A DNA stretch of 64,000 nt from Paraspadella gotoi (GCA_051294375.1 CM119265.1:27224517-27288516), one strand, 5' to 3'; counted from the first letter of the stretch, positions 16,422 to 37,500 are shown. Notes: generated by a model from the letters alone, not told the origin. Translations and numbers: made by a program.

Positions 16422-19400
16422 TTAATCTTCTTTCTTCTGATGATCGAGATTAATATCTAAGTGGAAATCTTTAGGTCGGGACATTACGGTGGACCACATC
16501 AGCAGCCAGAGCGGAAAATAACCTGAAAATAAAATAAAATATTTTTTTTTCATGAAATTTGCAAAATTGTCTGCTTAATTTAAGATTTTATATCGATGTT
16601 GGTCTGGAAATAGGATAAAACACAAGGATAAAATACTTTCAACTCTGGGTTTTTAATTAAAAATTATCATTCTTGTCAGGAAGTTATTTATTGATAAAAT
16701 ATGTAAATACTGAGGCGAATCCTAAATTCGTTCTATCCCCTCACGGTCACGCTGGTTAAGTGTGATGGTGTCGGCTTAAACACGCCAGTGACATGGGGTG
16801 GTCGCTGCATGTTCAAAGCCCTGAGCGCCAACTGTCGCGAGATGGCTCGCACCCCTCACACACCAGGCATCACACAAGACTGCCCGTTGCCATAATATAT
16901 TGGTTGTACCAATTTCATAATATATTTGAGCCTGGAGTTTCTTACCCAAAACGGCAATGGTGATAGTTTGAACTCCGTGAACGTGAAGATCCACGACTGA
17001 ACTGAACAATCCTTCCTTGTACACCTTGATTGAAAGAAGGACGAAATATGTCTGGTTGATAATGATATTTCACCGAAAACACACTTTTGCTGACTCTCTC
17101 TCTCTCTCTCTCTCTCACCGAAAACACCCTGGCCATTTCTACATCCTCGTCGTACATCAGCATCCGCATCACGACCCCATAGAGAAACAGCATCGGGGGC
17201 GAGACGGCGAGAACAAGAAGAGAAGTGACGCCGCGAGCGAGGAGCGTCTCCCTCGGACTCGTCACCAACGCCACGGGGACGACGATGAGGGACGTCAAGA
17301 GGGCGAGAGAGAAGTTGGTGAGGGAGAGGGAGAAGAGGAAGAGTGCGAGGAGCATGAGGGAGACGCACTTGAGAAGAGCGGAGGTCGAGGTGGTCATGCC
17401 GCGGGAGAAGGGTGCGTCGTGAGAATGGCCTGTTCGTATGGGGAAAAGGAAGGATTTGAACTTATTCGGATCTGACCAAAATTAATCAAGTTGTCGTTCC
17501 TTCACCATTAACCTTGAACGATGCAGGCGACGGAGGTCGGGGGCGCGCGTTGCGACGAAGAACTTTCCACGATTTTGCTGAGATAAACGGGGATGATGAG
17601 GATCGGGGTGAGCAAAGCCACGTGACCTAAGAGAAGACCCGTCGAGAGGGGAACGCGGAAGACGCGTCCCGTGTCCATGAAGAATCGGTGACTAAAGAAG
17701 GGGAAGCATTATTGTAAGATCAGTAAATTGTTTAATTTTAAAGTCTAACAAAGATCCGTCGTATTACATGCAAGAAAGAAAATAAAATCGCTAATAGAAT
17801 TCGTTAGAAAATACAATGGTGAGAAATTGTTTTGCTCACTCTGTTCAAACGCCGGTATTTTTCTCTCTCTCTTTCTTTCCCTCTCTCTCTTTCTTTTTAC
17901 AATTAGCCAATCTGATTCCATTCGCTTATCATTTCAATAAATCTTCCTCTCATTTTGTTTACCATTTTCATCACGACCACCTCCACTGCGACCAAGTCTC
18001 GATTGAAATTGTTTTCTCCTCCAAATACCTGACGAAAATGACAAAGGCAGCGAGGTAACTGTAGGCAAGGTTGATGACGATGTGAAGCACGTTGACGGGC
18101 GGTTTGGGCTCCTCGCTCTCATCCTCTTCATCCTCCCTTTCTTTGTTGGGGTTGGAGCAGAGATTTCGAATCATTTCCTTGGGGAAGGAAGTAAAACAGT
18201 TTTTTTAAAGACGTTAAGTCTCTCGTGAATAAATCAATAAATAAATCATCGCCGGCCGAACCTTCAACGGTGGAATAAGTTCCATCATTCCGGCGTCGGA
18301 CCAAAGAGAAAAGGCCTGGACGATGAGAGGAACGACGATGAGAGCAAAGGGGCGCATGTAGAGACCGATGGAGACGTAACGCTCCGTCGCGGGGAGGACG
18401 TAGAAAAAGAACGACTGAAAGAGTCATGGAAATAAAAGAAGGCATGGAACTTGCAGAAGCCATGGACGTCAAGGGAGACTATACGTATATCTCATGCAAA
18501 ATACATTTCGTAATTGAACATTGAACAATGAACAACACAAAGAGTCCTACCAAAAATGACAAGGCTAACTCCTTTTCAAAAAACCCCCTCACCTGGTGAA
18601 ACCTTTCCAACAGATTGTTCAAACTCCTGAAGATCGATTCCACGATCCTCGCCATCTCCAAAGCTCCGAACCTCGCGTCGGACGGGGCTCCCTCGAGGGA
18701 GGAGAGGGTAATGGCTTCCACGTGATACTTGTGAAAGAGGCCGTGATTGCCCGAGTGGTAGCCCGTCGCCTGGCCGAGCATGCCACGGGCCAGGGTCTTG
18801 AGCGAGTGGAGGAGGCCGTTTCGAGAGTTGGGAGATTGGTGATCCACGCGGTTCTTCAGTTTGGGGACGATTCCTTCTTTTCTGAAGGCGGGAGGGAGAG
18901 AGAAAAATGGTACATTTTTAAAAAAACAGCATAGCAGCCGCAAATATAAAGTGTCTCGTAACCAACCGGATCATCCTGACGGCGAGGTTGACGAGATCCA
19001 AGTTCGGCAATTGACCGTTCAATCCCTCGATCTTTAAATCGATCGCTGCCAATTTCTTAGAATTCATTTCCAAGTTGATCGCAGCTTGAATTGAGCCGCC
19101 TCTGGCTTGCAGTTCCGCCGTCTAGAGAAAAATTAAAAATGATTCAATGGTATTAACGTAAATTATTAATGTAATTGTAATGTAATGTAATTGTCCCGAT
19201 CGACTTACCTTGAAGTGGGTGGACGGCATTTGATGATAAGCTTCGAGCCAGGCGGCCATCCCAACGTCCTCGTGGTCGGTGACGAGGACGATGATGTCCT
19301 TGGCCCAGTAGGTCGTCTTCCTGGCAAATTGCGCGAAGGCCAGCATGGTAGCTATGGCGTAATTGTTTTCCGGCTTGAGGCCGTTGTCCGGAGGTCGGTA

Positions 19401-20028
19401 GGGAGCGCTGAGGACCACTGATTCTGTGCTGGGGGTTCGAAGGGCTCGCATTATGCCGTACACGTTCTTTCCTGGTGAGGAAGAGCGAGGATTTAAATGT
19501 TTCTGATAAACAAACGACAACGATTGAAATTAAAGCAGAGAAATACTTATAAAATCGTTAATTCCGAATTCGTGGAAAACCTGGAACGGCCTCGCCATCG
19601 GCGATCCCAAACGGATACGAGACGTTGTATTCATGGACGTAAGCCTCGAGGCCGATCTTCCTCATTGCATCGACGAGCCACTCGGCGGGGATCGAGCGAC
19701 CAGCGGCTTCGGCCTGCGGCGTCAAGGCCGCGTGGAAGCTGTGGATGGATTTCTCGTCGTAGTATTCGCCTGAAGTGATTTGAATGTTAATTTGGTATTT
19801 TTATTGGTTTACTCTCTCGTTCTCTCTCTTTCCCCCCACCGACTTACCTTGGACTAAGCCAGGCAGGAGGGCGTTCTCGCTGAAGTAGGTCCCGTCATTG
19901 TATCCTCGATAGGCGAGAATAAGGAGATGGGCGACGCCGGTCAAGTAGGAAAGAAAGCAAAGGGCCTTAGAGTTCTTTTTGATAAACTTAATGATCCTGG
20001 CGCCCAGGCGTTGTTTGACAATCGTCAT
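16422..20028 (-). CDS. GPAA1: GPI transamidase subunit GAA1
   Basis: GTYFSENALLPGLV; GKNVYGIMRALRTPSTESVVLSAPY; YWAKDIIVLV; EGLNGQLPNLDLVNL; ESIFRSLNNLLERFHQSFFFYVLP..RYVSIGLYM; multi-TM C-terminus. Confidence 0.96.
16712..16893 (+). mobile_element. SINE family A copy 3, internally deleted (last GPAA1 intron)
   Basis: GGCGAATCCTAAATTCG joins almost directly to ATCCCCTCACGGTCA..GTGTGATGGTGTCGGC, matching copy 1 apart from a gap. Confidence 0.7.
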
Positions 20029-20134
20029 TTTTTTTTTCAAATTACTAATGGTGAGAAAAAAAATTGACTGACATTATTAATATTATAGTAAATATTTGAC
20101 GAGTTTACCGTTTATTGGACATTCATTCAATGTA

Positions 20135-20650
20135 TCAGGTTTGCTTTTTATGTATCTTATCATATACGAACTTAGCCGAAACCACATCTTGCACGGTCAT
20201 TCCTAAGTTTTTAAAAATCGTGGTTTTGCTTCCCACGTCGCCTTCTCCCTCGATAAATTTTCCTTCTTGCCGACAACGCAGCGCGACTTCGCCCAACTCC
20301 GCCTTCATTAAATCCACAGCACCGCTCAGGATGATGTCGCCAGCTTCAGAGGCAGCGCCGGTACGACTGTCGACGATCACGAGGCTCTCCCTGACCAGAC
20401 TCGCCTCAAGCACTTGCTGGTCACTCCCGGGGGCGCCGGCGGCATTTATGTGGGAACCAAGTTTGACAATACTCTTAAACAAAATGGGAGTCGTGGCCAG
20501 CGTGGCCGTGACAATGACGTCAGCGTCATGAACAGCTTCTTCAGCCGAATCGCAGGCTAGAACGCCGAACTCCTGGGCAAAGGCTTCCCTCTTCTCTTTT
20601 GGCGGGCTCCCGGACAAGTTTTAACACTTCTAAATGGCTGCGCGCCTGAT
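20135..20650 (-). pseudogene. 5'-truncated tandem duplicate of CRYM (C-terminal half)
   Basis: ORF 20135-20617 parallels the CRYM C-terminus. The upstream remnant HQARSHLEVLKLVR is out of frame because of a deletion. The N-terminal half is absent. Confidence 0.8.
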
Positions 20651-20891
20651 GCCACTATAATAACCAAATTAGATCAAGATGATGAATTAAAATTTATTCA
20701 AAATCAAATAAAGTAGCTATCACAGATGAGTCCCATTAATTAAAAAACAGATAAAAAAACAAAACAATTGTAATAAATATTCATTATAGATTTTGATTAA
20801 AACCTGATTAAATAAAAAAATAATTGAAATTTAACTTTTGAGACATCAATTATATATTAGTCGCCCAAGGGGTAGTTTTTCATTTGTATTT

Positions 20892-21845
20892 TCAACCACA
20901 AATTTTGTCATAAACAAACTTTGCTGATACAACATCCTGAACAGCCATTCCCAAATTTTTAAAAATGGTGGTCTTGCTTGTATAGTCGCCCTCTCTATCA
21001 CAAGATATTCCTTTTTGTTGACAGAGCAAGGCAACTTCACCCAACTCTGCCTCAATTGAATCCACAGCACCGCTTAATATAATGTCGCCAGCTTCTGATG
21101 AAGCACCAGCACGACTGTCCACAATCACACGGCTCTCCCTGACGAGACTCGCCTCAAGCTCTTGCTGATCACGCCGGGGGGCACCAACGGCGTTGATATG
21201 GGCACCAGGTTTGACAAAACGTTTTAACAAAATGGGAATCTTAGCCAATGTAGCTGTCACAACAACATCTGCATCACGAACGGCTTCCTCAGCTGATTCG
21301 CAGGCCTGGATGCCAAAGTCCTGGGCAAAGGCCTCCCTTGACTCTTTGCGAGGGCTCCAAACAGAGATGGTCTCAAAATCCCGGACCAGCCTCAATGCAA
21401 CCAAGTGGCTGCGGGCTTGATGCCCTGACCCAAGGATGCACAGTTTTTTGGAGGATTTTGGCGCCAAGTATTTAGTAGCAACAGCGGAGACAGCAGCTGT
21501 TCGCATCTCAGTAATCACCTCTCCGTCCATTAGGCAAAGTACCGACCCATTGTCCGGATTAAACAAGATAATTGTAGCGTGATGCGTTGGGACGTCAGTA
21601 TTATTAGGAAAAAGTGTGACCATTTTAGTCGCCAGTGCCTTGTCCTGGGCGCTATATCCTGGCATACTGAACAAAAAGCCATCTTGTTCCTTTACGGGAA
21701 CCGTCAACCTTACAGGCTGAACGATACCCCCTTCCTCGCCTTGGGAATATCTGATCATAGCTTTTTCCATCAAGGGAATCAACTCTTCCATGCTGAGAGT
21801 TTGACGGACGTTTTCCGATGAAATTTGTAAAATAGGTTTGCCCAT
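20892..21845 (-). CDS. CRYM: Mu-crystallin / ketimine reductase (ornithine cyclodeaminase family), intronless
   Basis: QPVRLTVPV, MPGYS, ALATKMVT, MDGEVITEMRTAAVSAVATKYL, ILGSGHQARSH, GAHINAVGA, FKNLGMAVQD. Confidence 0.95.
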   Translation of the reverse strand: MGKPILQISSENVRQTLSMEELIPLMEKAMIRYSQGEEGGIVQPVRLTVPVKEQDGFLFSMPGYSAQDKALATKMVTLFPNNTDVPTHHATIILFNPDNGSVLCLMDGEVITEMRTAAVSAVATKYLAPKSSKKLCILGSGHQARSHLVALRLVRDFETISVWSPRKESREAFAQDFGIQACESAEEAVRDADVVVTATLAKIPILLKRFVKPGAHINAVGAPRRDQQELEASLVRESRVIVDSRAGASSEAGDIILSGAVDSIEAELGEVALLCQQKGISCDREGDYTSKTTIFKNLGMAVQDVVSAKFVYDKICG

Positions 21846-22075
21846 TTTGACTGCTTTGGCAACGAAAAAAAATAAAATAAAAATAAAAACGAAATCAACG
21901 GAGTTATACAAAACTTTAGCTAGTGAGTTAACAAGTGCACCATAAAACCGTGTAACAAATATGCCATATACACTTTATTCAAAATATGCTCATTGCTTAT
22001 TAATAAGTTCCTGAATCGAAAAACAAACAAATTACAAAATATATGCCCAAATGCGACGAGCTAAATTTAATAATT

Positions 22076-23758
22076 TTAAAACCCAATGAAGACCCCGTCG
22101 CTCCTTGGGTCACAGCCTCCGATCCAAGCAATTGTCGACCCTTCAACGTCATCAACAAACGATTCTCTCCGAATCACGTGACCTCTTCCAAACAAAGTGC
22201 GATCAAATCCTCTCAAAGGGCCGACGACAGAATGTCCACGCCTTTCGAGTTCGCGGTCGACCTCGGCCGGTATACCTTCCTCCAACGATACGTCCCCGTG
22301 AGAACCCTCATGGCCGGGACCGACGCAAAAGCGCGGGACCTGCAGCGCCTCTTGTGGACTCAATCCACGCAGGATCATGTTGAGAAGGACTTGCACGTGA
22401 CCCTGCGGCTGCATGAACCCGCCCATGACGCCGTAAACGGCGATCAATGAAGAATCAATGGGCGAAGTCACCATGGCCGGAATTATAGTGTGGTAAGGCC
22501 GTTTGAGGGGTGCCACGCAATTTGCGTGACCCTCTTCAAGAGAGAAATTCAAACCACGATTGTGAAGCGAAAACCCACAATTTTCAGGAACGATTCCCGT
22601 TCCGAATCCCATGAAGTTGCTGTTGATAAAGGAGCAGGCATTGCCGTTAGAGTCGACAGCGCAGAGGTAAACTGTGTCACCTTCGCTAGAGAGAGAATTG
22701 ACACCGATGTCGCTGGAGACTGATTTTAAAGCCTCGTCGTTTCTAATCAGCGCCGCCCTCGATCGCGCGTATTCTTTGCTCAACAGCTTTTTCAGAGGAA
22801 CGTCATAGTGGACGGTATCGGCGCAGTGGCGCTCGGCGTCGGCGAAGGCCAAACGAATCGCCTCGATGAGAAAGTGGAAGTAGTCGGCCGACCCGGGCGC
22901 CGCCGATTCGAGCCGATCGCCGAGAGCGTCGAGAATGTTGAGAGCGATTAGGGCCACGATCCCCTGACCATTGGGCGGAATTTCCCAGAGACGATGTCCG
23001 CGAAAATCGGTAAAGATCGGCTCGACTTCGTTGGAGGCGTGGCCTTGCATGTCCGCGGTCGTCAAGACGCCTCCCGCCTTTTGGACCGCAGCGACGATGG
23101 ATTTCGCTATGAGCGATTCGACATCGTAGAAAGTCTTTCGGGCGCCGTTTTCGCCAAGAGTCTTCATGACCCTCGCGAGTTTCGGATTGCGGAAGACGTC
23201 GCTAGATGAGGGACTCCTCGGCCCCAAGTCGTCCATCACTAGGAGATCTTCGCCCCAGGAATTGTCCGGTCGGCGGAGGAGGCTTTCGCCGGATTTCCAC
23301 AGGTGCTCCACCCAGGGGCCGACGCAGAATCCTGACTCGGCGATCTCGACGGCGGGTTGGAGGATTTCCGCGAAGGAGAGACGATGAGAGCCGAAGAGGC
23401 GAAGGGCGTCCTCCCACGCGGCCGCCGCGCCGGGCACGGTGACCGCGAAGCCGTGCGTCGGCGGAATGCCCTTGGAGAACCCAGAGGCGTCGACCTTCTC
23501 CAACGTCAATCCGGCCGGCGCTCTTCCCGATCCGTTGAGGCCACGCACACGCTTCGTAGCGGCGTCGTAGAAGAGGCAGAAGGCGTCGCCGCCCAAACCC
23601 GTGGCACAGGGCATGGTAACGCCCAGCGCCGCTGCCATAGCGACGGCGGCATCGGCGGCGTTGCCACCCTGCTGCAGAATCCGCAGACCGGTGTGGGAGG
23701 CAAGTGGCTGCGAGCAGGAAACCGCGCCGTGAGAATGTCGAGCCGGGGCGGAGGTCAT
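22076..23758 (-). CDS. Gamma-glutamyltranspeptidase / glutathione hydrolase, YwrD-like subfamily, intronless
   Basis: SQPLAS..G..IL..GGNAADAAVA, GLGGDAF, WEIPPNGQG, catalytic Thr in GDTVYLCAVD, KRPYHTIIP, GVMGGFMQPQGHVQ, DPRSDG. No N-terminal membrane anchor. Confidence 0.95.
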   Translation of the reverse strand: MTSAPARHSHGAVSCSQPLASHTGLRILQQGGNAADAAVAMAAALGVTMPCATGLGGDAFCLFYDAATKRVRGLNGSGRAPAGLTLEKVDASGFSKGIPPTHGFAVTVPGAAAAWEDALRLFGSHRLSFAEILQPAVEIAESGFCVGPWVEHLWKSGESLLRRPDNSWGEDLLVMDDLGPRSPSSSDVFRNPKLARVMKTLGENGARKTFYDVESLIAKSIVAAVQKAGGVLTTADMQGHASNEVEPIFTDFRGHRLWEIPPNGQGIVALIALNILDALGDRLESAAPGSADYFHFLIEAIRLAFADAERHCADTVHYDVPLKKLLSKEYARSRAALIRNDEALKSVSSDIGVNSLSSEGDTVYLCAVDSNGNACSFINSNFMGFGTGIVPENCGFSLHNRGLNFSLEEGHANCVAPLKRPYHTIIPAMVTSPIDSSLIAVYGVMGGFMQPQGHVQVLLNMILRGLSPQEALQVPRFCVGPGHEGSHGDVSLEEGIPAEVDRELERRGHSVVGPLRGFDRTLFGRGHVIRRESFVDDVEGSTIAWIGGCDPRSDGVFIGF

Positions 23759-25015
23759 GACTACGGAAAATTTCGTAAACACAATGAGAATCTTGAGGCG
23801 CTTCTGCTCTTCCTTTTAATCTCATCCGGTGCCCGCTCAAAATCTGTCACGTCGAGCAAAGTGACGACCGAAATCTGATCTTTGTTGACGTTGCCATATG
23901 CCAGAAATAATAATTACCACGCAATCGCAGAATAAAACATGTTCAAACATGGAAAATCCGAAAGCCGTGAATATTAAAATTATAATATTAAATCGAAAAA
24001 TATCTAGACTAGAGATATTTTAAAATATTATAAAAAATGTAATGAAGGAAAAAAAAATTGAAACGATCCACCTCCTTCGGTTGAAGTCGACGCCTGGATG
24101 TAAACAGGAAAGAAGAAGAAGAAGAAGAAGAAGAAGAAGAAATGAGGAAAGAGTCTGTATTAATTAAAATTAATATAGAAAACGGAGGGGCGATATTAAT
24201 ATTTGTTGTGATAAAATTAGTAAATTGAAGCAGTTATTATATGTTATTTTTTAGTTTTAGGTGTAATAATTTAAAGTTTAGAAGCACATGTTTTATAATA
24301 AGAAGAAGAAAAAATAGAAGAAGAAGAAGACGAAGTCTCGAACAAAAGACAAAATTGATTCGTTTCGTAAATAAAATTATTATAAAATGTATTTAAAATA
24401 TTTCATAATTTCGGAAGATTTTAGTACATGTGCATGTTTGCTCTTTGTGGACCCAATTAATGAATATTTGTTTTAAATCCTGGAGGGGTTTTTTCATTTT
24501 TACTTTTTTTCTAAATTTATTTAGATTTTAAAATTAGCAAAGAGAATTTGTTTTTAATTCGACAACGATTTTATTTTTTAATACAAAACAGACATATTTC
24601 GACTTTAATGTAAGCTTTAATATTTAATCTCCTAACACAACTAATCGAAAGAATTTTCGCAATGATTTTAAAATTTTATCGTTCTTAGAATTAAATTTAG
24701 TCTTTTAATCTCTGGATCTTAAAATTTCCTCACCCATTTATTAATTTATCGCTCTTTTTTATTTTTAGGGACCACAGCTTTTGCAGCACGGCTTATGCAG
24801 GAGCCTCAGTCGATTTTGCCAACTTAATGTTTACTTAACTGCGCATTTATCTAAACAAATAACATTTCTGATAGGCGTTCAAGCTTTCAGTTGTCCCCCT
24901 CGCCCGCGTGGGAAGATAATTCAGACGAAGTAAATTTCATTATTCGTGCGGGTATTAGTATTAGTTTTACTACGCATTTATCCGACTTCATTTTCTAGCT
25001 CCTCTACCCCTCAAC

Positions 25016-27020
25016 ATGCTCCTCCGCGTTTCCCTGCTCTTACTCCTTTGGACCGTCTTCCTGGACGCGGCACCAGTCACAGCGCCTCTCTTAGCCCGGG
25101 ACGGCGCCGCGGCGCCGGATGACGAGTCGATCCTCTCGTTAAACTTGGTCGAAGCTGAGGCGGCGGTGGTTCGATTCTTCAAGAACGACCTCTCAATGTC
25201 GATCGCCAGAAAGAAGCACCATTTCCGGACCCTCTTCACTTGTGACCTCTGCAAGACGGCCACGTATTTCATCGAGCGCGTCTTCCGATGGACGAAGAGC
25301 AAACGGACCCTCATCAGTCGGACCATCTCTTTCTGCAAATTCTTTCGCTTTGAGGAGGACGACGTCTGTGAATCCATAATCCCTCTCTACGCGGACATGG
25401 TGATCGACGTGGCGCGGAACACCTCGCTCACCGGCGACCAGATCTGCGGCATCATATTCGGCAGTCAATGCGCCGGATCGATCGGCGTCCAGTGGCGAGT
25501 GAAAATCCCCTCCAGCCCGCCCAAGCCGCCGGTGCGACCGCTGCGTCCGCCGCCAAAAGGCTCACCAACCAAGCGGATCCTCCACTTGACCGACACCCAC
25601 ATCGACTTCCAGTACGCGCCCGGAACCAACGCCGACTGCCCGCGCCCTCTCTGCTGTCGCAAAGAGGCCGGAGTAAGCGAAGACGCCGACGACTCCGCCG
25701 CTGGATACTGGGGATCGAACCTCAAATGCGACACGCCGCCCTGGACCTTCGTGGATCTCCTCAAGAGGCTCAAGGAGCAGGAGAAGCAAGAGGGAAAGTT
25801 CGACCTCATCTACTGGACGGGCGACGTCCCCGCCCACAACATCTGGAACCAAAGGCAGCCGGATCAACTCACCGTCATCCAACGAGTCGCCGATTTGATC
25901 GACGCCGCCTTCCCGGACACGCCCATCTTTCCGTCGCTTGGCAACCACGAGGCGTCGCCGGCCAACTCCTTCCCTCCGCGCGACTTCGACGGGAACCACT
26001 CCATGTCGTGGCTCTACGACCGACTGGAGAGAAACTGGATTCGCCGGCTGCCCAAGGGATTTTCTCCCGACACGATCAAACGCGGCGCCTTCTACTCTGT
26101 GCTGGTGGAACCCGGCTTTAGGATCATCTCCCTCAACTCCAACTATTGCAACAACCTCAACTTTTGGCTGCTGCTCAACACCACGGATCCGCTTGGCCAG
26201 TTGGGTTGGCTCGTCGACGAGCTGCTCCGGGCCGAAGCGGCCGGCGAGAAGGTCCACATCCTGGGCCACATTCCGCCGGGGCTTCCAGATTGTCTCAAGT
26301 CGTGGTCCTTTAATTTTTACAGCATCGTCAACCGGTTCGAGTCCACCATCGCCGGTCAATTCTACGGACACACCCACTTTGACGAGATGGAGATCTTTTA
26401 CGACGAAGCTACGCTCAAGGTTACCTAATGCTTTGGACATTGATTTAATAATGATTGGATAAATATAATTATTCAATTCAAATTTTTAAAATTATTCAAA
26501 TTTTACTCCAAAGCGTCCCGTCAACGTCGCCTACGTAGCGCCTTCCGTCACCACCTACGTCTACTTGAACCCCGCCTATCGCGTCTATACCGTGGACGGG
26601 TCCCGTCAAAACTCGACGCGTTACGTGACCGAGTCGGAGACGTACATCCTCAACGTTACTCGCGCCAACCTGGAGAATCGTACGACCTGGGAGCGGGAGT
26701 ACGCAGCGACTGAGGCGTACAATCTGACGACGCTCTTCCCCGCGGATTGGAACGGCCTCGCCCACCGCATGGTCGAGGATCGTCCGCTCTTCGACAAATA
26801 CATCCAGCATTTCTACAACTCGTACGAGAATCACGAGACGGACAGCGACGCCGACATTCTTTGTCGGCTCGTGACGGGAAGGTCGGACGATCCCGATCTT
26901 TGTAAGGAGATCGTCAAGGATTTCAAGGCTGCAGAGAAGAGGAGGAAGAGAGAACGCCACGCCCCTTCCGGTTCGGATGACGACCAATTCGTCTTCAAGA
27001 AAGTTCCCAGCCTTTGCTGA
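25016..27020 (+). CDS. SMPD1: Acid sphingomyelinase (saposin-B plus metallophosphoesterase)
   Basis: Signal peptide; saposin Cys pattern; Pro-rich linker; DTHID, WTGDVPAH, LGNHE, GHIPPG, YGHTH; intron 26420-26513; PSVTTY..LNPAYRVY. Confidence 0.96.
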
Positions 27021-27313
27021 TGGTTTTAACCTCAATTGCTGTCTATTATTCACGGTGAAAGTAGTTTTATTTCTATTATTATTTATTCGTCGTAATTTCT
27101 CTTTACTTGTTCGAACCGTTTTACCAATGTTTTTATTATTTAAAGTTTTTATAATTCAAAGTATTTCTTTTTGCCTTGGTTTTTAAATAGCTGTCACTCG
27201 CACTTTTGCGACCTAACCTTCTTATTTTTCATTTGCAGGTCTTTTTAAATACGGAGAGATTGAGGCTTCCTTTACCTACTCAAAAACTTTTACGTAAATA
27301 TAAAAAATAAAAA

Positions 27314-29570
27314 ATGACGTCCGGGACTTTGTATTGTTATCCCGATGATTTTAAAGCCTTTAAAGGACTCATCGCGGCCGAGTATAGCGGGGTCAAAGTC
27401 AAGGTTAATTTTCCTACTTTTAACTATATTTAATTAATGTTTTGCAATTAATATTTCGTTTCGTCGATCAAGGTGCTATCATCTCCTCCCGATTTCGTCC
27501 CCGGGGAAACTAATTCTTCCCCGGAATTTCTCGCCAAGTTTCCTCTCGGGAAAGTCCCCGCCTTCGAGTCCGTTGACGGGAAATGCTTCGCCGACGGCAA
27601 CGCCATCGCGGTTTTTCTCGCCGGCGAGCAGTTGAGGTACAATGTAATATGAGTTAACAATTATTATAGTATATTTGTACGTTATTCTTTCTTCGTCTTC
27701 TTTATCGTCGCCTTTGCTGTCATTAAAGATTTTATTTTTCGTGAAAATTAGTCGATGTTTTTTCGAACGAATACACATACGTATGGATTCAGTGAAAAAT
27801 GTTCGCATTTATTTCTCTTAGCCATTTGTGTTAATTGGAATCAAGTTCGTTTCTTTCTGATATTTCAGATTTATTATATTTGACTCAGGGGTAAAACGCT
27901 TGATCATAAAACGGAAATTCAACAATGGATCTCGTTCGCTGACAACGAGATCTTACCCTCGGCTTGCACATGGGTTTTCCCTTACCTCGGACTCATGCCC
28001 TTCAACAAGCAAACCAACGAGCGGGCTAAGACGGATCTCAGGTCCTTTCATTGTTTTATCGTAATGATAAATATTTGTTAAATATGACGATTTTTTTGTC
28101 GAATTGTCAGACGGGTTCTTCAAGTTCTCAACGATCACCTCAATCGAAACACTTTCCTCGTGGGCGAAAGAATTTCCCTCGCCGATATTTGCTGTTGCTG
28201 CAATTTGATCCTCGCCTTCAAACACGTCCTCGATCCCGGTAAACTTGATGATTATTTTAGTAGTAATAATAGTAATTTATTTGTGACAATGAGATGTATA
28301 TAAAACCCCGCCCCTCTTCCAGAGTATCGCGTCGGTTTGAACAACTTGACGCGATGGTTCGTGACGATCGTGAATCAAGCGGAAGTGAAGCGCGTCGTCG
28401 GCGAAGTCGTCCTCTGCAGCAAACCCGCCTCCTTCGACGCCAAAGCCGTCTCCGAGTTCGCCGCCGCCGCTGGACGAGGCGAGGGTCGTCAAAGGTCCGC
28501 CTCGGGACGGAAGAGCGAATCCAAATCTGCCGAGGTGCTTGACCGATTGAGTTTAAACCAAAGTTAAACAAAGTTTAATGAAACTTTTATATCCGAAATC
28601 CTTTTAATCTATATGGCAAAAATTTTAGGAATAAGTTTTGTAATTCTCTTTGTGCCAGCAGATCGTTTACCGGTACGACGAAAGCACGAAGGAACGAACC
28701 TTCATCATGGTCAAACCCGATGGCGTTCAGCGCGGATTGGTCGGCGAAATTATAAAGGTAGTTAAGCCGAAGTGAGTGGGTTATGAGTGTTAAAGTAGTT
28801 GCCTTTATTTCTTCGACGACCCACTCCAGAGGTTCGAACGTCGAGGGGGACTCAAGCTCGTCGCTCTCAAGTTTGTCGTCGCGTCGTTGGAACTGCTGCA
28901 GCAGCACTACGCGGATCTCGCCGCCAAACCCTTCTTCAAGGGGATGGTCGCCTACATGGCTTCCGGCCCCGTTGTTCCCATGGTTTGGGAAGGATTAAAC
29001 GCCGCCAAAATTGGAAGGATGTTGCTGGGTGAGTCGTGCGCCTGTTCTGAAAAGTGTCTCTTCCAGATGGCTTTATACGTTTTGTTTTCTTAATATTTAT
29101 TTCATTTTAGGCGAGACTGATCCTCAGAAGTCGTTACCCGGAACGATTAGGGGTGACTTTTGCTTGGACATTGGGCGAAATCTCCTTCATGGTTCGGATT
29201 CCGTCGATTCGGCTGCAAAAGTTAGTTATATAAGTTATATTATAACGATTGAGGGATATGTAAAAATACATATTACTATAAATTGGTATTTTCTTTTAGG
29301 AAATTAAATTATGGTTTGGCAACGACCTTTCCGACTGGGCGCCGGCATCGCAGTTTCACGTTTACGAACCGAAGATGATCGAGGTGATATTTGTAAATAT
29401 TCTGCGGGACTTATTTAATTACATGTATAAAATATGTATAAAACATCAATGTACAGGAAAGCAAGAAAGGAAACAGCGAGAAGAAAAAGCCAAGCGGAGA
29501 AACGAAGAAGAAAGAAAAGAAAATGACGAAAGAGGAATTGATTGCGGAGGCGATGGAGGAGTACTCTTAA
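27314..29570 (+). CDS. Putative fusion: eEF1B-gamma-type GST-N/GST-C domains, nucleoside diphosphate kinase (NME1/2-like), Lys-rich tail
   Basis: Ten phase-compatible GT-AG exons: 27314-27403, 27473-27636, 27889-28041, 28111-28238, 28323-28534, 28659-28757, 28830-29028, 29111-29220, 29300-29383, 29457-29570. GST part: [71 protein letters not shown] part: [43 protein letters not shown]. Confidence 0.8.
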
Positions 29571-29852
29571 CCGTCCAATTAGATCCGGGGATCCTTCTCA
29601 TCGATCAATTAGATCCGGACATCTCACCCTCGAATCTCTCAAAAACTTGTTTAAAGTAAAGGAAGTCTCATTCTCTCATTGAAAAACGAAAAGACGCTAA
29701 CGTTTACACTTTTGTTTTGTCAAGCCGTTCGTAGTATTTGGCTTTTTTTTTTTTGCGATTTACTTAAAAATTAAATTTTAAATATTTTTTAAGTGAGGTT
29801 TTTTATCGTTTACTCACCAACCAGAAAAAGTTAGACGTAATCACATTGAACA

Positions 29853-31449
29853 ATGATTCGATCCTTCGCCTCCGTTCGCTCGACGTTGATGCGTCGCAGC
29901 GCCACCCGCGCTCTTTCTCTTCTCGGAACGAATCAAACTCCTCATCTTCGCGCCACCTGGCGTCCCTCTTACCACCGTTCTGCCCCCATGTCCACCGCCC
30001 CCGCCGCTCGCGCCACCTCGAACGATTCGCCCCCGACGTCGACCGAATTAAAGCCCGGCCAAACCCTTCACGGTTTCACCGTCAACCGGGTCGAGCCCGT
30101 TCCGGAAATGGGCGTTGTCGCGACGCTCCTGCGTCACGACGTCACCGGCGCTCAGCTCTTGCACCTGGCGCGCGACGACCCCGACAACACCTTCGCCGTG
30201 GCCTTTCGCACGACGCCGATGGACTCGACGGGTGTGCCGCACATTCTGGAGCACACCGTCCTCTGCGGGTCGACCAAGTATCCCGTCAGGGATCCCTTCT
30301 TCAAGATGCTCAATCGGTCCATGGCCACCTTCATGAACGCCATGACCGCATCGGATTGGACCATGTATCCCTTCTCTACGCAAAATTCGAAAGACTTTGA
30401 CAATCTCCTCGACGTCTACTTGGACGCCGCCTTCTTTCCCAACCTTCGGCGTCGAGATTTTGAACAAGAGGGATGGCGATTGGAGCACGAGAAGGTGGGG
30501 GTGTGGCAATGAAGGCGTATTTGGAGAATTAAGATTAAGAATTACTTAATTACTTAAGATTACTTAAGATTAAGAATGCGGTGAAATGTTAAGGCTTGGA
30601 AAGGCTTGATCAAATGTCTTGTTTGAACATGGATGAAAGAATGATTCTGACTTAAGCTTTATTCACCTTCCGATGTTTGTATAAAATATTCATTTAACAA
30701 TCAATCCATTTATCCGTCCTATTAGATTCCGTCCATTGCTCATATCATTGTAATCCAATTACATCACTTTTATCCCCATCCAATCTATCCATATATCCAT
30801 CCATCCATCCATCTTTAATCCCCCTTCAGCTCGACGACCCCACATCCCCCATCATCATCAAAGGCGTCGTCTTCAACGAGATGAAGGGCGTCTTCTCCGA
30901 CTCCTCGAGCCTCTTCAACGAAGCCACACAGAACCGCCTCCTCCCCTCCCACACCTACGGCGTCTGCAGCGGCGGAGACCCGCTCGACATCCCTGCCCTT
31001 GACTGGGAGGGACTCAAGGCCTTTCACTCTTCCCACTACCATCCTTCCAACGCCCTCTTCGTCACCTACGGCGACCAACCGCTCGAGGGTCACCTGAAGA
31101 AGATTTCCCGCGCCGTTATGAGCAAATTCACATCGGCCGTTCATCCGGGGACGGAGGTGCCGTCGGAGCCGCGATGGACGCAGCCGCGGACGGCGTCCAT
31201 CGCCTGCGCGCCGGATCCCATGGCCGCGGTGCCGGGCAAGGAGACGGTCGTCTCTAAGTCTTATTTGGTCTCGTCGGTGCTGGACGACTTCGACGTCTTC
31301 TGCGCGGCGCTGGTTTGCAAGTTGCTCGTCGAATCGGAGACCTCGCCGTTTTATCGCGCGCTGCTCGAGTCCGGGCTGGGATCGGATTATAGTCCCAACA
31401 CGGGATTCGATACTTATACCAAAGACACTTCATTTTCTGTTGGTCTGCA

Positions 31450-31515
<66 letters not shown>

Positions 31516-33966
31516 CTAGGGATCGTGCGGTCAACTTTGCTTTTTCCCGAATCGGTTTTTTATTTCATTAAACTAATTATTGTTTATTTGCCAATGTTGT
31601 AATCATTACGATATTACATCTAATTAAAATCATCTCCTTTCTTCCTATCATCAATCCCCTCTCCCCACTGCCACCCCCTCTCATTCCCCCCCCCCCAAAA
31701 AAAAACATAGGGCGTGGCGGAATCGGACGCAGACAAAGTTGTCTCCCTCATCGACTCCACTTGGGACAAAGTCGTGTCCGAGGGATTCGAGGACAAAGAC
31801 GTCGACGCCGTCCTTCATCAAATCGAACTCAAACTGAAACATCAGACGACCAACTTCGGTCTCCGCCTCATCTACGCCCTCATTCCCTCGTGGAATCATG
31901 GCGGTGATCCCGTCGCCGCTTTGAAGGTCGACGAGAAGGTCGAGCGATTCAGGAAGTTACGCCGGGAGAATCCCAAGTTTCTCCAAGACTTTGTCCGGAC
32001 TCGTTTCAAGGAAAACCCTCACTGCTTGACGCTGACGATGAAGCCTTCGCCGAGCTACACCGACGAGCTCGCCGCCAAAGAAGCGGGACTCTTGAAGACC
32101 AAATTAGTGGACGTCGACGACAACGCGGCGCAGCGAATCCTGCAGAGCGGCCGCGAATTGGCGGCAGAGCAGAGCGCCGAGGAAGATTTGTCGTCTTTAC
32201 CCTCGTTGACGTTGAAGGATGTGGACCGCGACATTGAACGCGACGCCATCGACGCGCGGAAACTCGCTCAACTTCCCACATCACCACCGCTGCGTCTCGT
32301 GCCGCAGCCGACCAACGGAGTCACTTACCTTCGTCTCCTCTTTTCCCTCCGGGACTTACCACCTCATCTTCGACGTCTAGCGCCGACTTTCGCCAACGTC
32401 CTGACCCAAATGGGCGCCGGATCGATGGATTACTTGACTTTGAGCCGAGAGATCGATCTCTGCAGCGGCGGATTCCACGCGGCTCCGCTGATTAACGCTG
32501 GATTCGAGGATCTCGGCGTCTGCGAGGAAGCGCTGCTGTTGTCGTCGCACGCGCTCGACCGTAACTTCGAACGGACTCTCGAATTGTGGGCAGAGATCCT
32601 GACGTCGCCGCGGTGGACGGACGCCGAGAGGTTGGCTACGCTGGTCAAGATGGCCGCCAGCGAGGCGGCTTCTTCCGTTCTTTCGTCCGGACACTCGTAC
32701 GCGATGCGTCATTCTTCCTCGACTTTCTCCCCGGCGGCCAACGCCAACGAGGTCTTCAACGGGATATCCCAAGTGGCCACGTTGAAGGAACTCGCCGCGC
32801 GAGTCGAGAAAGAGGGTAAATTTTCGCTCAAATAAAATTTAAATTATTTTACCAAAATATGTCATTGATAATGTTCAACTATTGCCTTTTTGTTTTCTCA
32901 TCAGGAGCCGAATTCCTCTTGGCCGATCTTCGCGCCATCTCGGATCTCGTCCTTCGGAACAACAACGTCCTCCGCGTCGCCATCAATAGCTCGCCCGACA
33001 ACGCGTCGTCCGCAGCCGACGCCGTGGAAAGCTTCGTCGGCGACGGAATCTCTCGCGCGACTTCGGAGGCGCCGGCGAAGGAGAAGGCGGCGGGCGGAGC
33101 GGAGATGGGGAAGAGCAAGACTCAATTTAAACTCCCTTTTCAGGTATATTTTTTTTATTTATTTTTTAAGTTTTCTCACAAGATTTAAATTGTTTTCGCA
33201 GGGTTTTACCATGTATTTTTGTCACTAATTTTTTAATGTTTTGTGCTGCCATCTATATTTAAAAGTTTCTCATTTTTCCGCTACGCATTTGATTGAAAAT
33301 TTTATTAGTTATTAGTTAGAAAACTACTTGACGTTTATATTTCTTAATAGTATAATCACTTTTCTTCATTTATTTTTTTCGTCCAAATGTTGTTGACTTC
33401 TATCTCACTCTGTTTGCCCACCAACCCACCCACTTTTCTAGGTCAACTTCGTCTCCACTTCCTTCGCCACCGTCCCTTTCTCCCACCCCGACTGCGCCCC
33501 CCTCCGCGTCCTCTCCAAACTCCTCTCTTGGAAATTCCTCCATCGCGAGATCCGCGAGAAAGGCGGCGCCTATGGCGGCGGCGCCAACGCCTCTACCGAC
33601 GGCGCCTTCTCCTTTTATTCCTACCGCGACCCCCGCAGCCTGGAAACGGCGCGCGTCTTCGAGGAGGCCGTCGAGTGGATCGTCGGCGGCGCCTCCACGG
33701 CCGCCGATCTCGACGAGGCCAAGATGTCTCTCTTCCAGCAACTCGACAAACCCGTGGCGCCCGGAAGCCGCGGGTCGCAGTTCACCGTCTCTGGTTTGAC
33801 GGACGAGTTGAGGCAGGAGCATCGGGACCGGATCTTCGGGGCCGCGAAGGAGGATGTGGTGAGGGTGGCGGCGGAGTATTTGAAGGCGGAACGAGGGAGG
33901 ACGACCTTGTTGGGGCCGGAGAATGAAAAGGTGGACGAGACGTGGACGAAGGTGGATTTTAAGTGA
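29853..33966 (+). CDS. PITRM1: Mitochondrial presequence protease (pitrilysin M16C)
   Basis: Transit peptide; [17 protein letters not shown] (HxxEH); [11 protein letters not shown]; QEGWRLEHE; [10 protein letters not shown]; QPTNGVTY; [15 protein letters not shown]; YSYRDP. Five exons. Confidence 0.97.
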
Positions 33967-34545: not shown

Positions 34546-37500
34546 TTATTTCCCCGGCGGCTTGATGCTTTTCCATCCAGTGGGACCGTAACCCATGAAG
34601 GCTTTGATGTCACACTTGAACGCGGACGGGAGTTGAGCGGGCAGAGAGGGCGTTTCCTGCGCCACCGGCTCGGGTTCGGGTTCCGGCTCTGGCGCCGGCG
34701 AAGGCTCCTTCTCTACAACGACGGGCTCTTCCGGCGTTGGCTCCGGCTCTGCTTCCGGCTCCTCGGCGGGCTCTTCCGCCTTTTCCGGCTCTTCCTCGGC
34801 CGGCGCCGAGACTGGCTCCTGTTCTGGCTCCTGCGAGATCTTCGCCTGCTCCATGATTTTGTTCAAGTCCAAGATTTCTCCCGGCGGAGGAGCGGCCTGC
34901 GTTACTGGCGGGAGTGTGGCCGCCCAATTCTCGTACATGGGGCGGTTCATTTCCTCGACCATTTTGAAGATGGTCGGGGTCGAACGGGGCGTCGGCTGGT
35001 GAGGGAGGGAGAGGGGGAAAGTTTTAAACGTCAATGTTTATCCGGTGGTTGTAAAAAAATGTTAGGGTGTTGCGATTTATCACACCACCTCACCTCCGAC
35101 TTTACTTAATCTTCTCCCCCCCCAAAAAAAATGCATAAAAACCCACTTTTTAAAGCTAAGGGATTGTCCTACCCTTCGAAGCCTGACTCTAATATTGGTC
35201 TCCGAGATGATTGATCACTGATCGATATCAATGATCACTGATCAGCCCGCTCAAATGCGGCCTTTCACATTTCCACGTCCTACCCTCCGTTGCCTTACCA
35301 ATTACCATAACAATTTTAATCCTTACCTTCTTAACATTGGTCTCGTCGATGATCCACCTGTCCGCGCTCGCTTTTCGCTGCTCGAAAATCTCCGCCCCTC
35401 GGTTCTGCTGATTCTTTAGTCCTTGGATGAGCCCGAACGCCTGGTCTGGGGTGATGCCATCGTGGGTGGCGTGGGCTTCGTTGTGGAACTGTTGGAACTC
35501 GTTGGAGGTGTAGATGTTGGAAGTCAGGGATTGTTCTGTGATGAGTTTTGGGGGGAAGGGGATTCCGTGTTATTTAAATGTTATTTTTAAATTATTATCG
35601 TTATAATTATTATTTATAATAATAACAAAACGTAATTAGTTTTATCGCAGAAGTTGTGCCTGTTCGAATAGTTTTGAGGGGAGGCTTGGAGACTTGAAAC
35701 TTATTTTTGTCTTTGATAAGTATTCCTATAACAAAAATATCACAAAAGTTTAATAACTAGGTTTATTTTTATGCGTATTTTTAAGTACAGTATAACTATT
35801 TGAATAATTATACTGTACTTAAAAATACGCATAAAAATACATCTAGTTATTAAACTTTAGTGATATAACTTATTTGTTTCCTTATGAAAGATGTTCTTCA
35901 GAAAAAAATGTGGCAGTCGTTAACAACTATTGCCACAATAACCTCATTAAATTAATACATAATTTCAGCCAATTTTTCGTATGAAGAGGTCAGTAAATGA
36001 CTTTTTTTCGACTCGCCCGTCAAAAATGTTCTGATGGGCGCCTGGGGGAATCCGGGCACGCCCGGACCGGCTACCCCGTTGAGGTAGTCGTCGACGGCGT
36101 TGCGTTGATCGTTGCTTCCCTGACCCTCTTGCGAGAAATCCTCGATCTTGGAGAGTTTCTTTTGGAACATGTCGCGACCGCGGGCGTCTGGGATTTGGGG
36201 TGTTGGGCGAATAGCGGTGACAATTACTGAATTACTTACAATTCCTACAATAGATCTTTCTATTTAACATCTATTACCTTCGGCTTCGAAGTTGGTAGTT
36301 TTCACCTCTATAATTATGTGTAAATCCTTTCTTTTTTTGTTGTATTTGTAGATTAAAAGGAATAGTTTCAATATCTATGATGAAGGCTCGAATTTGAGCC
36401 GAAACATGTTCGTCTATCATTAAATAAATTGTTGTTGCAATGATAATCATACTATTCCTTTAACCTCTATATTCTATTATATAATAATAATATAATAGTC
36501 TATAATTATATTTCAACAAACTTGTGCTAACATTTACCACAGTGGCATTAGACTTACCCCGGTTCTCGTCGGAAAAGAGACTGGCGGAAATGAGTTTGCA
36601 CAGTTGCTTTTGCTCGTCGATCGTCGGGTAGACATTGCCAGACGTTTGGTAAAATGACGAGTCGCTGTGGAGGGAGATATTTATTAAAAAATCTTGCTAC
36701 TATTTGTATATTTATTTTTTAATTTTAAATGACAAAACCTGTATCGCTTCAAGTTGAGCTTTTTGGGTTGAATCAATTGGGATTCACAATCAGGCGGAGG
36801 TCGGAGGAGCTTTTCAAGGCCTCTTTGTGCCAAAGGATGTGGTGGACCTAAAACGGACGTAATATTTAAAGAAACAACCCTTTAAGCTATATAATTTACA
36901 ATACAATATTCGGTAAAATATTTATTTTTAAAATAAAAATTAAAAAAAATTATTACCGCATACCTAATTACCCTAACCCTAAACCCTCCTAACCCTAACT
37001 ACCCCTAACCTTAAACCACCCATAAACGACTTTTAACCCATAATCCCCCTCACCCCGGTCGGCGAAATTAAAATTGACCCCAATATTCTATTTCTGTGCA
37101 GTTTTTAAAATTTCCGTTAAAATTATCAATTTGGTCGTGAATTCAATTCCAAGCAATCGATGGTCGTATTTTAACTCAATTTGCATATTGTAATAAATTT
37201 TTATGCAGCGTAGTGAAGTGGAATTTCTTTACTAATAGAGCTATATCTATAATTGCCGCCATAAATAATCCCCAAGCTATTTTGTGTACGTTGAAGTTTT
37301 GGCATAAAAAAACATTTATGAAGAGTTAAGTTACGTGGAGCATGAAATTGTTCTTCGTTCAAGCGCTATCGTCTATGTAGTATTTATTTGATTTTTTTCT
37401 CTACCTAATAAAATCTGTCTAACAACCGCATTAAGATTTTAAAGTGACCTTCGGAAGGTGTGACTAATCCGCACATTTAGCGTGCCAATTAGGGACGGTT

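Follow-up and report, generated by a model that had tools for sequence, protein, structure and literature searches.

In humans, eEF1B, a complex that serves as guanine nucleotide exchange factor (GEF), is an (alpha-beta-gamma)3 assembly with six GEF domains, in which the N-terminal domain of eEF1B-gamma alone binds the alpha and beta subunits, eEF1B-alpha contacting it at residues 144-161 and 170-190, and binding leaves the gamma linker and C-terminal domain as they were (PMC9458455). An enzyme can dock on this complex and hand its product to eEF1A, as does valyl-tRNA synthetase (ValRS), which binds eEF1B-beta by its own N-domain and supplies aminoacyl-tRNA (PMC9458455). The gamma subunit itself (EEF1G) consists of a glutathione S-transferase (GST)-like N-domain (PDB 5DQS/5JPO), a Lys-rich linker and the EF1G C-terminal domain (PF00647, hereafter the C-domain; 1PBU). 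Nucleoside diphosphate kinase (NDK) domains joined to extra domains are known from the Group II NME proteins, with Dpy-30 in NME5, DM10 in NME7 and thioredoxin in NME8/9. In Group II, the NDK domains have diverged and for the most part lack activity (PMC2777172, PMC7024210); Group I NME proteins, such as Drosophila Awd (1NDL) and NME1/2, are described as single-domain (PMC2777172), and the active form of Group I NDKs in eukaryotes is the hexamer (PMC7024210). Local supply of GTP by an NDK beside a GTPase is established for the dynamins (NME1/2-dynamin, NME4-OPA1 and DYNAMO1-Dnm1), with channelling versus enrichment under debate (PMC7432047). Here we describe a gene of Paraspadella gotoi, found in a stretch of 64,000 nt (GCA_051294375.1 CM119265.1:27224517-27288516; the whole stretch is called the window), in which a Group I-type NDK stands within the linker of an eEF1B-gamma protein.

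The fusion gene lies at 27314-29570 on the + strand and comprises ten exons; the introns between them are of GT-AG type, measure 69-252 nt and have an AT content above that of the exons. Its single frame of 449 aa has no internal stop and encodes, in this order, an eEF1B-gamma GST domain, an NDK and a Lys-rich tail; a Pfam scan assigned GST_N to exon 2, GST_C to exon 4 and NDK to exons 6-8. The contigs used here are those of runs X1 to X7, which are not recorded as RNA and whose RNA nature was deduced from their intron-free GT-AG joints. The features of the gene are as follows.

27314-27403, + strand: exon 1, with the ATG, the start of the GST N-lobe and a phase-0 donor; joint present in X1
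27473-27636, + strand: exon 2, GST_N (PF02798, E 4.5e-7); the ES motif of unfused eEF1B-gamma is DG here
27889-28041, + strand: exon 3, GST domain
28111-28238, + strand: exon 4, GST_C (PF00043, E 1.1e-7), containing the equivalent of the first human eEF1B-alpha-binding segment (144-161)
28323-28534, + strand: exon 5, which completes GST_C and holds the eEF1B-gamma linker's first half; phase-0 donor
28535-28661, + strand: intron 5 (127 nt), at which GST is joined to NDK; the distal AG of its tandem acceptor is in use (X1, X3)
28662-28757, + strand: exon 6, short lead-in and NDK start (PF00334), the K12 equivalent being K267; no ATG of its own
28830-29028, + strand: exon 7, NDK core with the Y52, F60 and R88 equivalents and a clade-specific one-residue insertion after position 31
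29111-29220, + strand: exon 8, Kpn loop of the NDK as well as its catalytic His, the H118 equivalent being H374 (codon 29188-29190)
29300-29383, + strand: exon 9, NDK C-terminal arm with E129 and the terminal YE motif, phase-0 donor
29457-29570, + strand: exon 10, second half of the Lys/Glu-rich linker; the stop falls at the exact start of the C-domain in relatives
29571-29790, + strand: likely 3' untranslated region (UTR), ATTAAA at 29770, right end approximate; contigs of X2, X4 and X5 terminate at 29730-29754

The fusion gene is a genuine spliced in-frame gene. All nine introns are spliced out in transcript-type contigs of X1, and the GST>NDK joint (28534>28662) is carried by one X1 contig of 6477 nt with 96 letters on its short side; X3, from a different study, has this joint too, but its short side of 19 letters falls under our 31-letter bridging rule and makes it a weak instance. 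The donor after 28534 and both candidate acceptors of intron 5 are in phase 0, neither of the two ATGs within that intron (28578 and 28613) is in frame with the NDK, and no Met precedes the first strand in the NDK frame. Because the X1 contigs extend into both neighbouring genes, such a contig is by itself no proof of a single transcript; what ties the GST exon to the NDK exon is that the splice is exact and in frame. Contigs of X2, X4 and X5 continue past the stop region, and no splice out of exon 10 was seen among the contigs aligned to the window. An earlier note, made from the sequence alone, had proposed the in-frame fusion and a phase-0 junction with no ATG before the NDK start, and had named junction-spanning transcripts as the check; the exon structure and the X1 joints bear it out. 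It had left the acceptor of intron 5 at either 28659 or 28662. Since the contigs use the distal site (127 nt skipped), the protein has 449 aa and lacks the Gln of that earlier proposal.

All nine residues listed for NDK binding, catalysis and assembly (K12, Y52, F60, R88, T94, R105, N115, H118 and E129; PMC7024210) are present in the window protein and invariant in the 17 full-length fused relatives described below. The same holds for S120 and P96 (hexamer stability), and the C-terminal YE arm is also found in the window; the ten NDK residues named in the earlier note are all there, P96 as well. Mean identity among the 17 full-length fusions was 93% for the NDK, 84% for the GST, 84% for EF1G and 71-73% for the linkers, and the window compared with the fusions gave 82% for the NDK, 70% for the GST and 44-50% for the linkers. 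Between the window gene and its fused relative L001, pN was 0.11 in the NDK, 0.18 in the GST and 0.32-0.44 in the linkers, pS being saturated so that no dN/dS ratio is given. The window NDK had fewer private changes in 15 of 15 comparisons (2 at p<0.05), which are not independent of one another. Judged by sequence identity, the NDK is the best-conserved domain of the fused proteins. It is a Group I-type domain that has in common with Awd and NME1/2 the nine residues above, the YE motif of the terminal arm, S120 and P96, and it is intact, unlike most NDK domains of the Group II fusions. The protein is nevertheless not a canonical Group I NME, since its NDK is internal to a multidomain chain. 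The domain has no start or stop of its own, gains one residue after position 31 and loses one after W133-F134.

When exon 7 was searched against longer proteins, 34 matches were obtained, and 20 of these combine NDK with the C-domain (17 full length, 619-636 aa; 3 partial); in these relatives the NDK sits in the middle of the Lys-rich linker of eEF1B-gamma. With P0001 as query, the best 120 of 1834 matches comprised 20 GST-NDK-EF1G proteins, 100 GST-EF1G proteins and no GST-NDK. Ten clusters (eight gamma-type, two delta-type) contained 57 further members, 48 of them complete, the others being fragments, one odd singleton or delta-type. In a 50%-clustered library, GST-NDK-EF1G was found once among the best 150 of 16042 matches, which indicates that the fused family is one compact clade. 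Full-length fused relatives matched the window by tblastn at E 1e-130, and the best PDB matches of relative P0002 were 5DQS for the GST (E 1.7e-80) and 1NDL for the NDK (E 6.9e-64). Two other organisms (X6 and X7) each had both a fusion-type contig and a contig for a free, ATG-initiated NDK. A second, divergent NDK contig of X1 (3408 nt), aligned at 28955-29009, represents a paralogue or another organism. We set aside P0085 (GST-NDK with an unrelated tail) as a likely assembly error, for it diverges within the linker and the rest of its cluster is full length. The ESM Atlas returned ordinary EF1G clusters only, at 0.83 or lower, and no match for P0424 (an alpha-type protein, see below), and AlphaFold2 gave no confident model for 12 fused sequences (pLDDT 32, pTM 0.20). 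Fused relatives are publicly deposited under automatic labels, e.g., 'nucleoside diphosphate kinase/glutathione S-transferase'.

The window copy differs from these relatives at its C-terminal end. Halves of the Lys-rich linker lie on both sides of the NDK, whose insertion into the linker the earlier note had suggested, and the C-domain is missing, as that note had stated; it was not found in the whole 64-kb window (tblastn best E 0.1; profile best E 0.87), nor was a decayed remnant of it found in the 3' UTR. Because the fused relatives are GST-NDK-EF1G, loss of the C-domain is a second, species-level event, and the window protein is a truncated derivative rather than a canonical eEF1B-gamma member. 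The claim that the architecture is undescribed stood in part: we found no description of an NDK-eEF1B fusion in the openly accessible literature (chaetognath or copepod terms included; subscription literature was outside the search), nor any match for it in three PDF supplements of PMC12460157, but GST plus NDK without the C-domain is not the norm of the family. Compared with eEF1B-gamma, then, the fused proteins are paralogues that keep the GST-like N-domain, the Lys-rich linker and, in the relatives, the C-domain, whereas their linker is split by a 163-codon NDK module and their ES motif is replaced. The window GST aligns over its full length with eEF1B-gamma relatives; against P0002 it is 78% and 81% identical in the equivalents of the human eEF1B-alpha-binding segments (144-161 and 170-190), 71-74% in three larger flanking segments and 88% in the 8 residues between the binding segments.

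To place the gene, we built a quick tree of the GST domain from 89 rows, all of them EF1G: the window, 17 fusions, 31 close unfused proteins, and 18 named and 22 other distant EF1G, with three partial fusions and 29 other listed matches omitted. The window gene grouped inside the fusions (SH-aLRT 99), with the 31 unfused proteins as sister; fusions and close unfused proteins together formed a clade (SH-aLRT 100) separate from every named animal, and the stem of the fused clade was long (0.21, support 99). Two of 38 loci carry one and the same leader at their 5' end: L001, a fused relative, over 25 nt, and L002, an unfused one, over 26 nt. This leader corresponds to the chaetognath spliced leader SL2.0 in Table 3 of PMC2481426, where a 16-nt piece of it was matched. 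For the window gene, which is placed by the tree, none of the contigs showed a leader. The fused gene is thus likely a derived paralogue that arose by duplication, alongside unfused eEF1B-gamma, in a lineage that is likely that of arrow worms. The unfused eEF1B-gamma of the same lineage (P0100-P0131) form at least two sub-clades, from which arrow worms likely keep three or more eEF1B-gamma paralogues.

Exons 6-9 form a 489-nt (163-codon) phase 0-0 NDK module, and the introns that bound it are no more than 11 and 6 codons away from the borders of the NDK. When nine introns were placed at random, with simulation windows picked after the data were seen, introns came this close to both NDK borders in 2% of cases and fell anywhere in both linkers in 32%. 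The phase-0 introns near the borders suggest that a duplicated EEF1G took up an NDK gene in one of its linker introns and that splicing captured it, which would have left a phase 0-0 module without an ATG or stop of its own. The C-domain would have been lost afterwards, in the window lineage. Directly after the stop codon, we observed an 18-nt direct repeat at 29576 and 29606 (29576-29623), 89% alike and 30 nt apart, which may or may not be a scar of this loss.

NDK fusions are not confined to the gamma subunit. The exon 7 search also returned two matches with NDK and an eEF1B GEF domain, and with P0030 as query this combination was present in 107 of the best 120 of 2031 matches. The majority type among the P0030 matches listed has the NDK ahead of the eEF1B-delta leucine zipper and includes the copepods Eurytemora (P0357), Tigriopus (P0396) and Lepeophtheirus (P0394/P0397); these proteins are present in NCBI/UniRef under automatic names, and we found no paper on them. 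They resemble the window protein in having a Group I NDK inside an eEF1B subunit, but their host is a trimerising GEF subunit, the NDK precedes the zipper and the phylum is another. Near-identical copepod proteins without NDK also exist (P0383, P0413 and P0406), which suggests that the NDK is an optional cassette in eEF1B-delta. Six marine clusters (P0422, P0424, P0425, P0428, P0429 and P0434) have an NDK at the N-terminus of an eEF1B-alpha-type protein, with up to 44 members and both domains in 31 of 34 further listed members; P0429 is without the middle GST-like part. Five similar candidates (P0423, P0426, P0427, P0431 and P0433) were not counted, their NDK being nearly identical to free 151-aa proteins (P0583-P0586); P0423-type products have a Tyr at the stop position of the free protein and can be read as read-through, an alternative isoform or chimeras. 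The singleton P0420, a possible read-through or chimera, was not counted either. In the haptophyte Diacronema (P0027, P0026, P0527 and P0628), an NDK is followed by a Lys/Ala-rich linker and a conserved C-terminal domain without Pfam match. In an NDK tree of 56 rows, separate clades were recovered for the gamma fusions (99), for the alpha fusions (99) and, apart from the long Lepeophtheirus row, for the delta fusions (98).

From these comparisons, we lean, with modest confidence, towards the view that the fused NDK is tethered to the eEF1B exchange complex via its GST domain and turns the GDP released by eEF1A into GTP locally; both the eEF1B binding and the NDK activity of the protein are predicted. 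The GST domain would still bind eEF1B-alpha and -beta and so place the product in eEF1B. In the human complex, the N-domain alone makes the eEF1B contacts, which would thus be removed neither by the NDK insertion nor by the truncation. Hanging in the gamma linker beside the GEF domains, the NDK would use ATP to re-phosphorylate the GDP that leaves eEF1A. As the hexamer is needed for activity, the three tethered NDKs would have to recruit free NDK subunits into mixed hexamers or bridge two (alpha-beta-gamma)3 complexes. The affinity of eEF1A for GDP is about equal to that for GTP, so the local GTP:GDP ratio matters; the benefit would be a high ratio at the six GEF domains, by enrichment and not by strict channelling. 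The local-GTP idea, which the earlier note had raised, draws comparative support from the further NDK fusions, those with eEF1B-delta in copepods and those with eEF1B-alpha. By analogy with the dynamin systems, the window protein likely works like an NDK-fuelled GTPase module, although those systems are non-covalent and serve membrane GTPases that need no GEF, whereas the fusion here is covalent and to a translation GEF complex. ValRS is similar as an enzyme docked on eEF1B, but the fused NDK belongs to the gamma chain, and its product would be GTP instead of aminoacyl-tRNA.

Several observations weigh against local GTP supply within eEF1B, and most of them would fit a fused paralogue that has left the complex, its GST serving as a dimerising, stabilising or targeting handle that puts an active NDK elsewhere, e.g., at membranes, the cytoskeleton or other GST-domain complexes. 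The ES motif, which serves GSTs in binding glutathione, has been replaced in 19 of 19 fusions, whereas 31 of 32 close unfused proteins and 63 of 68 distant ones keep it, and the function of the fused GST must therefore be altered in some way. In 15 of 15 comparisons with five relatives, private changes were more numerous in the window GST (6 comparisons at p<0.05); the comparisons are not independent, and none at p<0.05 involves the distant outgroup. The GST thus evolves somewhat faster, and the NDK does not. The fusions form a distinct clade on a long stem, the window copy has no C-domain, and the unfused paralogues of the lineage could perform the canonical eEF1B-gamma job, so that an altered GST in a derived paralogue leaves room for a role outside eEF1B. 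Nucleotide diffusion is fast, and with a free NDK in X6 and X7 the gain from tethering may be small. As for the comparative support, approximately unbiased (AU) tests do not reject one clade for gamma and delta (p 0.66) or for gamma and alpha (p 0.56), so the NDK trees are no proof of independent origins of the fused NDKs, and independence rests on the different host genes, sites and distant phyla. We still judge it unlikely that the fused paralogue has left eEF1B, given that the relatives retain the whole eEF1B-gamma frame (EF1G 84% identical, 48 of 57 cluster members complete), that the alpha-binding segments are conserved and that the parallel fusions are on other eEF1B subunits, which have no such handle role.

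A place within eEF1B would also suit an NDK acting as a regulator, by ATP/GTP sensing through phospho-His, by phosphate transfer to a partner or by clustering eEF1B as a hexamer. NME proteins with His-kinase and other roles are described (PMC13256974), loss of NME1 in mouse liver moves eEF1B-alpha towards the endoplasmic reticulum (cited in PMC7160314), and a hexameric NDK on a trimeric complex would be expected to cross-link it. We consider regulation quite improbable, as every nucleotide-binding residue is invariant, as for ordinary phosphotransfer, and there is no known target. About as improbable is that two abundant housekeeping genes, perhaps operon neighbours, were joined for co-expression without spatial function, their halves working independently. 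Chaetognaths commonly have operons and trans-splicing (PMC12460157, PMC2481426), the window gene stands in an operon-like row (see below) and both halves are independent domains on flexible linkers, but read-through between neighbours would put the NDK at an end of the gene instead of inside it, and recurrence on subunits of a single complex in distant phyla is not what one would expect of a neutral join. A wrong merger of two adjacent genes, made by the gene model or in assembly, is a very remote prospect. Contigs can merge neighbours, those of X1 run into both, and the runs are presumed to be RNA; this reading is largely refuted by the exact in-frame GT-AG joint with 96 letters on its short side, by the lack of an in-frame ATG for a separate NDK and by the 17 full-length fused proteins from independent contigs.

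The surroundings of the fusion gene contain three further features on its strand.

24965-27020, + strand: acid sphingomyelinase (Pfam), upstream neighbour, stop 293 nt before the ATG of the fusion gene, bridged by an X1 contig; possible operon partner
27226-27239, + strand: candidate spliced-leader acceptor, inferred from an unpaired pyrimidine-rich AG (27237-27239), 74 nt before the ATG
29853-33966, + strand: M16C presequence protease (Pfam), downstream neighbour, ATG 282 nt after the stop of the fusion gene, bridged by an X1 contig, right end approximate; possible operon partner

The candidate acceptor is the sole one of its kind between the upstream stop and the ATG, and no cis joint was seen there in X1. 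The coding gaps of 293 and 282 nt, UTRs included, compare with chaetognath operons, in which same-strand genes are spaced by less than about 250 bp and resolved by trans-splicing. The same-strand row of sphingomyelinase, fusion gene and presequence protease (24965-33966, +), bridged by RNA-type contigs, agrees with operons described from chaetognaths (PMC12460157) and is a candidate operon. An X1 contig at 29986-30020 has a short match to the 5' region of the protease with unlike flanks and comes from a paralogue or another organism. On the other strand, 16945-23815 (-) holds a same-strand row of gamma-glutamyltranspeptidase (one open frame of 579 aa), ornithine cyclodeaminase/mu-crystallin in tandem (two frames, of 360 and 161 aa) and Gaa1, and 34546-36881 (-) holds Pro/Glu-rich frames with short motifs, which we take to resemble those of calsarcin/synaptopodin-type Z-disc proteins, as candidates only.

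Local GTP supply for translation is hard to test because contacts between NDKs and GTPases are transient. Natural covalent fusions on different eEF1B subunits point to a coupling of NDK and translation and offer ready test proteins, and from them a contact between NDK and eEF1B is predicted also for animals that lack the fusion. A broader view, which we put forward tentatively as falling somewhat short of probable, is that animals built a GTP-regenerating enzyme into eEF1B at least three times, on gamma in arrow worms, on delta in copepods and on alpha in a plankton group, and that these are cases of a general NDK-eEF1B module fuelling elongation on site, which other animals may form non-covalently. 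The window copy, as a natural minimal version made of GST and NDK, suggests that the C-domain is dispensable for the role of the fusion. For the little-studied arrow worms, the fusion is a phylum-level innovation.
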